A stretch of DNA of 64,000 nt from Candidatus Bathyarchaeota archaeon. GTDB lineage: Archaea > Thermoproteota > Bathyarchaeia > TCS64. The DNA lies in NCBI GenBank assembly GCA_963771885.1, contig CAVYVF010000023.1, positions 480,001 through 544,000 on the forward strand, given 5' to 3'. Made by a program: the position numbers and the translations under genes. The notes under the pieces are model-generated. The model did not search any database, had not been told where the DNA came from, and saw only the letters and a list, made by a program, of their open reading frames with translations. This document shows, in pieces, positions 23,154 through 35,637 of the stretch (position 1 is the stretch's first letter; the number at the start of each line of letters is the position of its first letter).

Positions 23154-23229
23154 GGCCCGGTAGCTCAGCGGTCAGAGCGGCAGCCTCGTAAGTTGTAGGT
23201 CGCGGGTCCGAATCCCGCTCGGGCCTCCA
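23154..23229 (+). tRNA. tRNA-Thr(CGT), encoded CCA
   Basis: GGCCCGG/TCGGGCC acceptor, CT-CGT-AA loop, T-loop TCCGAAT, U73. Confidence 0.9.
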
Positions 23230-29849: not shown

Positions 29850-29927
29850 GCCCTGGTAGCTCAGCCTGGCCAGAGCGGCAGCCTTGTAAGCTGTAGGTCG
29901 CGGGTCCGAATCCCGCCCGGGGCTCCA
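29850..29927 (+). tRNA. tRNA-Thr(TGT), encoded CCA
   Basis: GCCCTGG/CCGGGGC acceptor, CT-TGT-AA loop, T-loop TCCGAAT. Confidence 0.93.
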
Positions 29928-32240: not shown

Positions 32241-32699
32241 TTGATGGGACCAGGTTTGTCCGACGATGTTACTGCTAGGGTGCTCGAGGAGTACCTGAAG
32301 GACTCCCGCCAGTCAATAAGGGAGGTGGCGAGGAAGGTGGGCGTCTCCTCGGGGACCGTCGCCAGCCGTCTCAAGGAGATGCAGGATGCGGGTGTCATAC
32401 GCCGCTACTCCGCCATACTTGATTATGAAAAACTCGGCTACGAACTTACCGCCATAACTGAAGTGACCGTCTCCGATGGCAAGATGATAGAAGTCTGCGA
32501 GACTGTTGCCAAGATGAGCCAGGCTACCGGCGTTTACAACGTCACCGGCGACGCCGATATAATGATCGTCGGCAAGTTCAAGAACAGGAGGGAACTCAGC
32601 GACTTCACCAAGAAACTCCTCACAATCCCCCACGTGCAGAGGACGAAGACCCACCTCGTCCTCAACACGATGAAGGAAGACTTCAGCTTAATACCTTAG
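32241..32699 (+). CDS. Lrp/AsnC family transcriptional regulator
   Basis: DSRQSIREVARKVGVS.GTV..R, YEKLGY, YNVTGD.D, RTKT. Confidence 0.95.
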   Translation: MMGPGLSDDVTARVLEEYLKDSRQSIREVARKVGVSSGTVASRLKEMQDAGVIRRYSAILDYEKLGYELTAITEVTVSDGKMIEVCETVAKMSQATGVYNVTGDADIMIVGKFKNRRELSDFTKKLLTIPHVQRTKTHLVLNTMKEDFSLIP

Positions 32700-32702
32700 T
32701 CT

Positions 32703-32970
32703 TGGGGTTAATGGGGCGCCGCGCCGTGAGGCGCGGCAGAGAGAGTGCCCAGGCGTCGTCGCCGCGGGTGACCCCGTGTCTTCTTCCCGCCTCCGTTACC
32801 GGGGGCGGCCATGCATGCACCGGATTTCACCCGGGGAGTGCTCGTTCCTCGGCAAGCCAAAGCCAACCTTGGTCTTCGCGGCCCACTCCCCGCAGCTCTT
32901 CGGTTTCGGGGTTTTTCACCGCTTTTCCCCTTACCCGACTCCACCTGAGCAATATTTCCACGGAACCGCC
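32703..32970 (-). ncRNA. Putative large structured ncRNA of unknown class (strand probable, ends approximate)
   Basis: GC-rich space between convergent genes; 10-bp closing helix with adjacent K-turn, perfect 9-bp helix, three hairpins, two UGAAA loops, TATA-like TATTTATT at 32979-32972. Confidence 0.7.
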
Positions 32971-33061
32971 AAATAAATACCTAATCCGGCACACACGGGC
33001 GCTCAGATCCCTTACCACTAATGAAGGAAGCTTCTAGGTGCAGAAAACTGGAATATATGTT

Positions 33062-34120
33062 CTAGGGCTTAAGGTAGCCCTTGAGGTACTGCTTCATGGG
33101 CCTGCCTAGTGCGGCCTCGACGGGGTCGTATATCTCGGGGTACCTGTTGCCGTCGCCCACTTTTATCCGCTCCTTGGGCACGGTGACGACGTAGACGGTG
33201 TCGCCCTTCCTTAGAGCGGCGCTGGTGACGGGGTCGCCGTCGCCGTTGAATGTCGTCATGAGGTCGGGGAACGTCATTATGCGTTTCCCACCCTTCTCGA
33301 GGGTCATGTACTCATTAACGTAGCCAAGCTCCCACGTCTCCTTGCCCTTAACCGTCATGAAGCCGACGTCGAAGCCGCCGCGGGCCTCGTTAGTCATCTC
33401 CGTGATCTTGCCCTTCTCGAGGAGCTGGCCGCCGAGGAACTTTGCAGCAGCCTTGACGGCTGCCTCGCCCTTCTTCTCCTTTAGGTAGACGTTGCCGAGG
33501 TCTATCGCCTGCTGTATTGCACCAGGTGCGCCGTGCTCTAGACACCACTCAACGGGTATTGGGTCGCGCGCCATAGCGATGAGGGCCTTACAGTCCCCAG
33601 CCATAAAGCGTATCTGGTTACTCGTCCTCTGCAGGGTGCCCCAAGCTACCATTTCGGCTCCCTCCGTGGCGCCCGCCTTGACGGAATTGTACTCTATGCG
33701 GTGCATGCCCATGCTACCCATCATCGCGGTCGGGTGGGCGCGGCCGTCGCCGGGTATGTCGACGACCGGCAGCCCGAGCGCCGCGGCGGGTATCCAGCCT
33801 CCGAAGCTGTTCTGGCCCCCGTTCTCCGCGGCGATGACGCCATCGAACTCGACGCCCGCCTCCCAGAGCATCTGGACTGCGCGTATGAAGTGGCGAGACT
33901 TGGTCTCACCTTTCTGGGTCGGGGCGCCGAGAGCGGCGACGGTGATCACATTCCACTCGGGTGGCGTCTCCTCTGGGCTCCAAAGCTCGACTCCGCCGAG
34001 CTCCATCGCGAGCTTGCCCGAAGCGCGCCCCTCGTCTGGCCAACCTCCTCCGCCGCCTCCCAGTATGGTGCCGCCGATCGTGAGTGCCTCAACATCTTCA
34101 TATGTGATCTTTCTTGGCAA
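33062..34120 (-). CDS. DUF917 family protein
   Basis: GGTILGGGGGG, ENGGQNS, DGRAHP, NEYM, TFPDLM. Confidence 0.85.
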   Translation of the reverse strand: MPRKITYEDVEALTIGGTILGGGGGGWPDEGRASGKLAMELGGVELWSPEETPPEWNVITVAALGAPTQKGETKSRHFIRAVQMLWEAGVEFDGVIAAENGGQNSFGGWIPAAALGLPVVDIPGDGRAHPTAMMGSMGMHRIEYNSVKAGATEGAEMVAWGTLQRTSNQIRFMAGDCKALIAMARDPIPVEWCLEHGAPGAIQQAIDLGNVYLKEKKGEAAVKAAAKFLGGQLLEKGKITEMTNEARGGFDVGFMTVKGKETWELGYVNEYMTLEKGGKRIMTFPDLMTTFNGDGDPVTSAALRKGDTVYVVTVPKERIKVGDGNRYPEIYDPVEAALGRPMKQYLKGYLKP

Positions 34121-34203: not shown

Positions 34204-34488
34204 ATGGTCGGCACACGTAGGTACGTCGTCATTGATGACCGCGACAACGTCGCCACGGTCGTTGAGACGCTCAGGAAAGGTGAGGTCGTCGAGGTTGGCG
34301 GCGCCAGGCTCAGGCTGCTAAGGGACATCCCTGAAGGGCACAAGTTCGCGCTCGCCAAGATACCGAAGGGCGACTACGTCGTCAAGTACGGCGAGTGGAT
34401 TGGTAGAGCGACCGCAGACATAGCCGCAGGCGACCACGCACACGTCCAGAACGTCGAGGACATAGTCGACGAGGTGAGGAAGCTATGA
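34204..34488 (+). CDS. SAF-domain small subunit of UxaA/SuyA-type lyase
   Basis: DNVAT, IPEGHKFAL, VVKYGE.IG.A, HAHVQN. Confidence 0.9.
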   Translation: MVGTRRYVVIDDRDNVATVVETLRKGEVVEVGGARLRLLRDIPEGHKFALAKIPKGDYVVKYGEWIGRATADIAAGDHAHVQNVEDIVDEVRKL

Positions 34489-35637
34489 GAACCACATTCA
34501 AAGGCTATCGCCGTGCAGACGGGCGGGTAGGCGTCCGCAACTACGTTGCTGTGGTACCAACTGTCCTCTGTAGCGTCTCAGTCGCGAGAAGCATCGCCGA
34601 GGCGACGAAGACAAACGCCTTCCCACACGAGGGGGGATGTGGGCAGGTCGGCCCAGAAAAGGATCACACCCTACGGGTACTGCAGGGCGTGGTCAGCCAC
34701 CCCAACATCGGTGCTGTCCTCACCGTCGGGCTGAGCTGCGAGCAGATAGATGCCAAAAAACTCGCCGAGGCGGCAGGGGATAAGCCGACCCGCAATATCA
34801 GGATACATGACGCCGGCGGCAACATGAAGGCGGTTAAGAAGGGTATAGAACTCGTCAAGGAGCTCAAGACGGAGATATGCGGGCGCCAAAAGGACGCGGA
34901 TAGACGTCGCGGAGCTCACCATCGCCACACAGTGCGGGAGCAGCGACACCGGCTCAGGCATCGCCTCCAACCCTGCGGTAGGTGCCATGGCGGACAGGCA
35001 CATCGAGCATGGAGGCGCCGTAATCCTCGGGGAGACCGGTGGACTCTACGGCGCAGCAGGCCTCATGGCGAGGAGGGCCGCCACCAAGGAGATAGGAGAC
35101 GAGATAATCGCGATGACCGACAGGCTCGAGGAGTACTACAGGCGGATGGGTCGCAGCCTCCGTGAGGGTAACCCGACTCCAGGCAACATCGCAGGCGGCC
35201 TCACGACGCTAGTGGAGAAGAGTCTCGGCGGCGTCAGGAAGGGCGGTACAACCATGATACAGGGCGTCCTCGGCCCCGGCGAGAGGATAACGGGCAAGGG
35301 GCTCTGGGTGATGAACACTAGCCACGGCATCGGCAGCTGCGCCGCCGCTGACATGCTCGCTTCAGGGGCACAGCTACTCGCCTACACGACAGGCGGCGGA
35401 AACCCCATAGGTAACCCACTCGCCCCCGTCGTCAAGATCACAGCCACGAGGCGGACCATAGAACGCCTCGACGACATAATCGACTTCGACGCGAGCCCGG
35501 TCCTCCGAGGAGATGAGACAGTCAAGCAATGTGGCGACCGCCTCCTGAACTCCATAATAACATTCGCAAATGGGAGGAAGGTGCAGGCTGAGAAGACGCG
35601 CCACACAGCCTTCGCAATCGGCGACGTGACGCTATAA
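34485..35637 (+). CDS. UxaA/GarD/SuyB family dehydratase large subunit (apparent frameshift near 34882)
   Basis: GYRRADGRVGVRN, HPNIG, QCGSSD..SGIASNPAVG, NPTPGNIAGGLTTLVEKSLG. Confidence 0.88.

Follow-up and report, generated by a model that had tools for sequence, protein, structure and literature searches.

The stretch of Candidatus Bathyarchaeota DNA analysed here (64,000 nucleotides; the window) encodes archaeal SSU and LSU rRNA genes and contains a pair of convergent genes, for an Lrp/AsnC regulator and a DUF917/S-Me-THD-like protein, whose stops lie 362 bp apart. What occupies this gap, which a first-pass annotation had put at about 360 bp? That annotation, made from the letters of the window, proposed an independent non-coding RNA of undescribed class, about 270 nt long and bound by L7Ae through a K-turn, with paired T-loops gripping tRNA. 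The independent RNA was supported by homologues, covariation, a promoter signal of its own, RNA contigs confined to the element and the lack of an Rfam family. Conversely, the K-turn and the tRNA-gripping T-loops found no support as a family trait. We conclude that the element belongs to a real, uncatalogued, lineage-restricted RNA family; the novelty lies in the family and its fold, and the mechanism may be of a familiar type, for example a protein decoy.

The intergenic RNA gene and its putative transcription signals

The RNA spans 206 nt of the minus strand rather than about 270 nt, and represents the long, P5-bearing form of its family (Table 1). The minus strand is more stably folded than shuffled versions of itself (z -2.43, 0/200), whereas folding of the plus strand falls within the shuffle range (z -1.19, 24/200). 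The closing helix, the 9-bp helix P4, the 8-bp hairpin, the TATA-like box and a hairpin at 32808-32787 were all present where the first-pass annotation had placed them. A hairpin drawn as CCAAGG-UUGG-CUUUGG takes a different, family-conserved form, GGC-UUUG-GC, with its core at 32863-32856. The suggested back-pairing of the 3' tail was absent at the orthologous site of genome G003 and was not seen after other members.

Table 1. Coordinates of the RNA gene, its parts and its neighbours in the window
Feature	Position	Strand	Remark
Lrp/AsnC regulator gene	32241-32699	+	flank, outside the element
8-bp GC hairpin 3' of the RNA	32718-32737	-	not a family feature
RNA gene, long P5-bearing form, 206 nt	32746-32951	-	RNA contigs of 4 runs within 32746-32936
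P1 3' strand, likely RNA 3' end	32746-32755	-	X3 contig end at 32746
J3/1, GAC-GA	32756-32760	-	tandem G-A/A-G with 32941-32940 possible; k-junction candidate
P5 domain	32766-32831	-	medium and long forms only; branched in long
8-nt palindrome CAUGCAUG in P5	32810-32817	-	candidate dimer site
Arm 2: P4, pseudoknot loop, distal hairpin	32832-32892	-	P4 = 32892-84/32840-32
Distal hairpin	32851-32868	-	invariant GGC-UNNG-GC cap (UUUG in window)
Pseudoknot 3' strand GCCGC	32878-32882	-	internal loop above P4
P3 5' strand	32893-32896	-	partner CGGC 32764-32761
Arm 1	32900-32941	-	J1/2 GAG 32941-39, P2a, internal loop, P2b, loop L2
P2b in arm 1	32930-27/32911-08	-	
Pseudoknot 5' strand GCGGU	32918-32922	-	within L2
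P2a in arm 1	32938-35/32903-00	-	U-A in window, G-C in others
P1 5' strand, 10-bp closing helix	32942-32951	-	partner 32755-32746
TATA-like box, -28 to -21 from first P1 base	32972-32979	-	in register with family AT-rich box, -27 to -23
DUF917/S-Me-THD-like gene	33062-34120	-	flank, outside the element

Copies of the RNA have in common a TATA-like box 23-27 nt upstream of P1. Across 80 members, A or T made up 96-100% at positions -26 to -24 relative to P1, and T dominated positions +6 to +9 past P1; among held-out members, the AT box recurred in 50 of 52 and the T-run in 47 of 52. The window copy has its AT box in register, but possesses neither the T-run nor the 150-nt upstream module of the medium forms. 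A scan for sigma-70 promoters and terminators, a model unsuited to archaea, returned nothing useful. The nearest long downstream frame at 74 loci was on the same strand in 35, on the opposite strand in 34 and missing in 5, and no recurring partner emerged from the 97 of 140 flank ORFs scanned for gene families. The RNA is therefore not a cis-acting leader. Identity as a cis riboswitch was likewise rejected, as no consistently related gene lies downstream and the T-run follows straight after P1.

Part of the region 32500-33200 was contained in 20 of 23 listed sequencing runs, 11 of which are recorded as RNA. We aligned four RNA runs from four studies, chosen from the 23 for holding words of this region; each of the four yielded one contig within the element and none crossing into the flanks (32776-32936, 32746-32931, 32758-32930 and 32755-32915; three at ≥99% identity), the contigs carrying no strand, true ends or level. 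The contig of run X3 stops at 32746 against 21 loose letters, which we take to be sequencing adapter, and has a depth of 103 versus 2.8 on a contig of the Lrp gene. These contigs hint at a discrete, stable transcript from the element.

Rfam 15 gave no match to the element at the gathering score, and only four chance-level matches at E ≤ 10; a short form (L065) had none at E ≤ 10, and seven weakly matching loci had none. Nor is an open reading frame conserved across the element, a finding that would have spoken against an RNA gene: lengths modulo 3 divide 51/53/27, and the best frame is free of stops in 61 of 131 sequences. The RNA had been said to lack the hallmarks of RNase P, SRP and 5S RNA, and identity with any of these was rejected on the further ground that each is encoded elsewhere in the window's own genome (G000, 92% complete). 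HMMs of the family found no match in the genome's rRNAs or RNase P RNA (best E 2.7) and the short-form covariance model was scoreless on 5S rRNA, leaving a resemblance to the L1 stalk or to 5S without support.

Two further observations concern the window at large. ARAGORN calls anticodons CGU and UGU for the tRNA-Thr genes at 23154-23229 and 29850-29927, whose anticodon loops read CUCGUAA and CUUGUAA in the Rfam alignment. At 34485-35637, two overlapping frames of 226 and 216 aa resemble halves of one gene, presumably a UxaA-type dehydratase; the split, near 35000, suggests a frameshift or sequencing error.

Distribution of the family

BLAST detected matches in 10 of 61 related genomes. Covariance model R1, built on the core, matched 26 of 150 genomes of the class, every one in a single family (f1), and model R2, built on the short form, matched 25 of 150; on a phylum-wide draw, R2 matched 1 of 150, the window's own genome. 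These larger searches scored about 22 candidates per genome under strict filters, so distant forms may escape them. In a draw of 40 genomes from family f1, 23 genomes had matches at E < 1e-9, in genera g1, g5, g6, g8 and g9; no match beyond E 0.3 was obtained in genera g2, g3, g4, g7, g10, g11 and g12. Genomes G007 and G033 likewise yielded no member. From the lack of matches in these seven genera and two genomes it follows that the RNA is not universally needed. Among the genomes searched, members were confined to five genera, all belonging to a single family of Bathyarchaeia, with one to six copies per genome and five in the window's own.

A pattern scan of GTDB returned at least 118 loci, of which R1 confirmed 34 of 80 and 19 of 38. 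Of the confirmed loci among the matches listed, 50 bear the title Bathyarchaeia or Bathyarchaeota, one is entered as 'uncultured archaeon' and two have bacterial titles; the last two were not counted as bacterial because their 900 nt align along their length at ≥90% with loci of family f1. In metagenomes, 56 of 80 tested loci proved to be members (at least 120 loci reported). Viral scans produced 1 + 31 pattern matches, and 0 of these 32 loci were members; BLAST found no match to the window RNA in plasmids or to the short form in phages. Six of the seven weak model matches from the draw of family f1 were fetched and viewed, revealing no clear member, and at five of these six, frames lie open across nearly the whole 700 nt. 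One weak match, L285 (G017:C112), has a possible pseudoknot pair and lacks the UNNG hairpin, and may be a decayed or distant member or a chance match.

Members range from 127 to 208 nt and fall into three size classes: short forms of 127-143 nt, which have no P5, medium forms of 166-169 nt and long forms of 200-208 nt. Before alignment, we removed five rows that were partial or spurious.

Comparative evidence for the fold

Covariation, which the first-pass annotation had proposed to check, extends over the whole fold. When 47 short forms were aligned without structure, 89.8% of cells were paired, with 200 two-sided cells against 70.8 in shuffled alignments, and slid controls reached at most 42%. 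In P1, 98.7-99.1% of cells were paired and 4 to 7 of the 10 pairs carried two-sided changes. This 10-bp helix closes a three-way junction with two arms, the first running through P2a, an internal loop and P2b to loop L2, the second through P3, P4 and an internal loop to the distal hairpin. A 5-bp pseudoknot between L2 and the internal loop above P4 ties both arms together; it is 98.3% paired in alignment A5 and 100% in alignment A4, one pair being G-C in the window and A-U in 25 of the 27 rows of A4. The pseudoknot was then tested on 56 distinct sequences, which, with the exception of the window copy, had been collected afterwards from metagenomes and additional genomes. Aligned with a model that contains no pseudoknot, they show it 98.9% paired with 23 two-sided cells against 6.4 shuffled; kinship can beat shuffles, and slid controls were all ≤53%. 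Thus, a Y-shaped fold with pseudoknotted arms is supported by the covariation of these predicted pairs.

The columns of the GGC-UNNG-GC cap are invariant in both A4 and A5. The UNNG hairpin is never UUCG in 131 distinct sequences, a count that includes later members selected partly on the UNNG motif, which is invariant in the model-found sets also. Internal loops vary in length and sequence, and the P1 end and distal hairpin remain constant; unpaired purines that are invariant cluster around the junction and next to the pseudoknot. We rejected a kissing interaction of L2 with the UNNG hairpin, as the pseudoknot already occupies L2.

The compact pseudoknotted fold and its invariant unpaired purines would also suit a ribozyme of a new class, self-cleaving or acting in trans. 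We consider this highly improbable, since no ribozyme model scores, the RNA contigs are unbroken over 161-186 nt of the element, and both ends are already set by promoter and T-run.

The fold conflicts with the K-turn drawn earlier. Its C-stem, CGGC/GUCG, has a pair probability of 0.00, and homologues pair those bases in P2a and P3. Forcing the C-stem in the window RNA gave -89.8 kcal/mol, compared with -97.4 for the free fold, a cost of 7.6 kcal/mol, and -95.6 with the comparative P2a. A standard K-turn, with its C helix, its bulge of 3 nt and its G-A and A-G pairs within a duplex, was rejected on this probability. The two T-loop-like UGAAA motifs fared no better: that at 32829 overlaps helix P5 and is present in 1 of 9 long forms, and that at 32918 gives its first base to the pseudoknot. 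T-loop-like segments proved to be pseudoknot strands or their neighbours, an internal-loop motif included, and the reading of two T-loops or a tRNA-like elbow fell upon the pseudoknot test. Binders of the tRNA elbow, such as T-box stem I, RNase P and the L1 stalk, were rejected as models since conserved, unpaired, interlocked T-loops were not found.

Elements of a different arrangement survive at the junction. Tandem G-A letters occur there in 62 of 95 short forms, with A-A/G-A in 22 more; in the window copy they are shifted by one base, and the letters fit 1 of 9 long and 0 of 27 medium forms. All 27 medium forms and 6 of the 9 long ones have Watson-Crick pairs in place of the junction G-A. 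A k-junction, as described in the part of the source drawn on here, is a K-turn whose non-bulged strand accommodates a third helix, and is known from TPP riboswitches and rRNA (PMC4005666). The short forms and the window copy resemble it in having a three-way junction, in placing tandem G-A beside one helix and in inserting the third helix into the non-bulged strand; they differ from that description in a short-form loop of 2 nt, in the Watson-Crick pairs of most P5-bearing relatives and in giving no match to the TPP aptamer (PMC4005666, in part). A k-junction is possible in the short forms and the window copy, judged by these letters, and would be missing from the 168-nt form. As most P5-bearing forms have Watson-Crick pairs at the junction, L7Ae binding would not be a family trait, though the window copy may bind L7Ae by the look of its junction. 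That the RNA both binds L7Ae by a K-turn and grips tRNA elbows through two interlocked T-loops appears quite unlikely. The tandem G-A letters in short forms and, shifted, in the window would fit a k-junction in which P1 is the NC helix, P3 the C helix and P2 the third helix (following the part of PMC4005666 used here), and YGRAA stands next in L2 in 71 of 131 sequences; weighing against it are the zero probability of the drawn C-stem, the Watson-Crick junctions of 33 of 36 P5-bearing forms and the overlap of both T-loop candidates with helices.

Paralogues, possible function and known systems

A tree of 80 cores (144 columns, with many forks open) resolved three classes in genus g1, of 142 nt (support 99/98), of 132 nt (100/100) and P5-bearing (99/93); the window copy forms a long branch in the last. 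Clustering by flanks, which misses small shared frames and so overstates dispersal, placed 81 elements in 40 groups, with short forms in groups of 13, 11 and 6, and 15 of 19 medium forms sharing no flank with another locus. The two short paralogue classes sit at fixed loci throughout the genus and survive in G003. At the site orthologous to the window locus in that genome, a deletion of about 124 nt has taken away the promoter together with the 40 nt at the start of the RNA, and what remains of the RNA carries many pair-breaking changes between flanking coding ends that are almost identical. Judged from these sequences, the core of the family would be its short classes, whereas the P5 class has the look of a mobile and dispensable addition, whose fold is nevertheless preserved in intact copies; the window copy would be a paralogue that evolves fast, can be dispensed with and has gained a P5 domain.

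An 8-nt palindrome occupies one place in P5 in all nine long forms (7/7, then 2/2 held out). It reads CACGCGUG in eight and CAUGCAUG in the window, and both differences preserve its ability to pair with itself; given the close kinship of the eight, this amounts to essentially one compensatory event. The palindrome may allow the long form to dimerise. Palindromic pairing dimerises some natural RNAs, and the homodimers HYER1 and HYER5 likewise carry a palindrome in a peripheral domain of some members only; as the part of the report used here describes them, these are ribozymes about 600 nt long that derive from group II introns, whereas dimerisation is a candidate property here (PMC12990946).

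Medium forms have about 150 nt of upstream DNA in common at unrelated sites. A dispersed 21-nt repeat with the core CTTATCC...CCACCTGA has 12 copies in the window's own genome versus 1 in a shuffled genome, on contigs C1, C2, C3, C7, C10, C17 and C22 (e.g. C2:27140 and 27947) and not on the 1-Mb C23; it occurs also at L015, L027, L043, L049 and L084. It is found near 5 of 26 medium or long copies of the RNA and 0 of 55 short ones. Often the repeat lies 20-35 nt ahead of a start codon, and it can bracket single genes or an RNA module in direct orientation (at L043: -197, +51 and +631). It may serve several genes as a common promoter or operator, or mark the boundary of a cassette. The resemblance of its reverse complement to the P1 5' strand of medium forms is probably due to chance.

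Could the element then be a selfish, non-autonomous module, in which promoter and RNA are copied as DNA by a helper enzyme and the fold serves their spread? The multiple copies per genome, the upstream DNA and unshared flanks of the medium forms, the repeat beside medium and long copies and the decay of the window-type copy in G003 would all be consistent with this. We nevertheless judge it unlikely, since the short classes stay at fixed loci in genus-wide clades, no terminal repeats or target duplications are apparent by eye, the 97 flank ORFs include one TnpB-like and one integrase gene, no helper was seen in the window's own genome, and none of the 32 viral loci is a member.

Some neighbours recur within particular subsets of loci. 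A small frame that begins MK(I/M)K(D/E)xKKGYR lies about 75 nt downstream of the medium RNA at L004, L008 and L016, in three genomes. In 5 of 6 loci of the 132-nt class (L121, L123-L127), the RNA is two genes from one small gene, which we take to be Alba. In genus g8, the RNA at the commonest locus (L089, L074, L108, L110, L113 and kin) is followed after 80-150 nt by an SPFH/Band 7 gene with the same orientation, the T-run lying between RNA and gene. A TnpB/Cas12f-like gene ends 361 nt upstream of the long form at L011 in G016; none was seen at other loci.

What might the RNA do? That the internal loops vary when the P1 end and the distal hairpin do not best fits a rigid RNA that binds protein by two surfaces, and we tentatively favour a stable, trans-acting RNA that serves as scaffold or decoy for a protein partner. 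The gene would have an archaeal promoter to itself, with transcription beginning near the first P1 base and stopping shortly past P1, as proposed from the conserved TATA-like box and T-run and hinted at by the RNA contigs. The RNA would fold into the three-way junction, its arms locked by the 5-bp pseudoknot, and the rigid fold would display two invariant surfaces, one at the UGCCC/GGGCA end of P1, the other on the GGC-UNNG-GC hairpin. Both would most likely bind a protein that is held (scaffold) or titrated (decoy), with several paralogues perhaps tuning dose or conditions. Screens of the window's own genome, at 92% completeness, gave 0 matches for TROVE/Ro60, did not find a reverse transcriptase or IS110 transposase, and found TnpB below the cut-off only. 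Against the scaffold or decoy, the invariant bases would be just as compatible with a catalytic core or with a pocket for a small molecule.

SAM-I and lysine aptamers have a multi-helix junction braced by a hairpin-loop pseudoknot, a design resembled here by the pseudoknot of loop to internal loop across two arms. If the RNA were a stand-alone aptamer of riboswitch type, sensing or soaking up a metabolite or ion in trans, it could have its pocket at the junction or under the pseudoknot, where the invariant unpaired purines cluster. The k-junction, too, is known from TPP riboswitches (PMC4005666, in part). Unlike those aptamers, however, the family has no expression platform and no consistent downstream gene, no riboswitch model in Rfam scores on the window or short form, and junction letters differ across paralogue classes; we think this explanation rather unlikely. 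Bolder, and somewhat less probable still, is the conjecture that the paralogous pseudoknotted RNAs form an abundant machine of a new kind, which binds a small molecule or catalyses in trans, with palindrome-mediated RNA-only dimers of the long form, in dormancy or resource sensing by slow-growing sediment archaea.

Internal loops that differ between paralogue classes and are constant within them might instead pick different RNA or DNA targets, making each paralogue a base-pairing guide or antisense RNA. This seems very unlikely: the loops are rich in purines, unequal and span 4-7 nt, the window RNA matches the rest of its genome perfectly over 15 nt at most (shuffles, 13-16), and no C/D or H/ACA box layout was seen in the consensus or reported by Rfam. 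Guides of TnpB or IS110, retron and retroelement RNAs were rejected, there being no recurrently linked enzyme among the 97 flank ORFs scanned and both RNA ends being conserved. The gene for Ro60 (TROVE) is usually adjacent to that for Y RNA, and this pairing was rejected on 0 TROVE matches in the 92% complete genome and none among the 97 flank ORFs.

Beyond rRNA, tRNA, SRP, RNase P, guide and CRISPR RNAs, few stand-alone structured RNA families of archaea are known to us. A literature search that covered few subscription papers found no description of this RNA. A survey of 224 motifs makes no mention of Bathyarchaeota in the part of its main text consulted (PMC5737381). With strong covariation, a tested pseudoknot, three size classes, retained paralogues and presence in RNA libraries of at least four studies, the RNA can be made and probed in vitro at once, and the family marks a clade inside widespread sediment and soil archaea.

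5S rRNA (RF00001) shares with the family the size of the short form, the Y shape and a 10-bp helix joining the ends. It differs in having its own gene in the genome, on which R2 gives no score, and no counterpart of the pseudoknot, UNNG hairpin or P5. Multi-copy intergenic RNAs of 130-220 nt with their own promoter are known in archaea from Pyrococcus abyssi (sRk48/sRk52 and sRkB/sRkC), where sRk52 binds L7Ae by a K-loop; the part of their text description drawn on here, with serial stem-loops P0-P3 and several members tied to relics of OrfB transposase, differs from that of the present family (PMC3124441). No Thermococcales records were among the at least 118 loci of the GTDB scan. The raiA motif RNA is abundant, with a pseudoknotted, conserved core, a conserved closing P1 and subtypes distinguished by extra peripheral stems, and a section heading in the part of the report used here gives it as bound by KhpA/KhpB (PMC12968392). 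It is a stand-alone structured RNA of the same general make-up as the present family, but is bacterial, has two pseudoknots and another fold, and gives no Rfam match here, making the relation one of analogy and not kinship (PMC12968392, in part). By that analogy, the raiA motif would be the nearest analogue in profile, and a precedent for the profile of this archaeal family.
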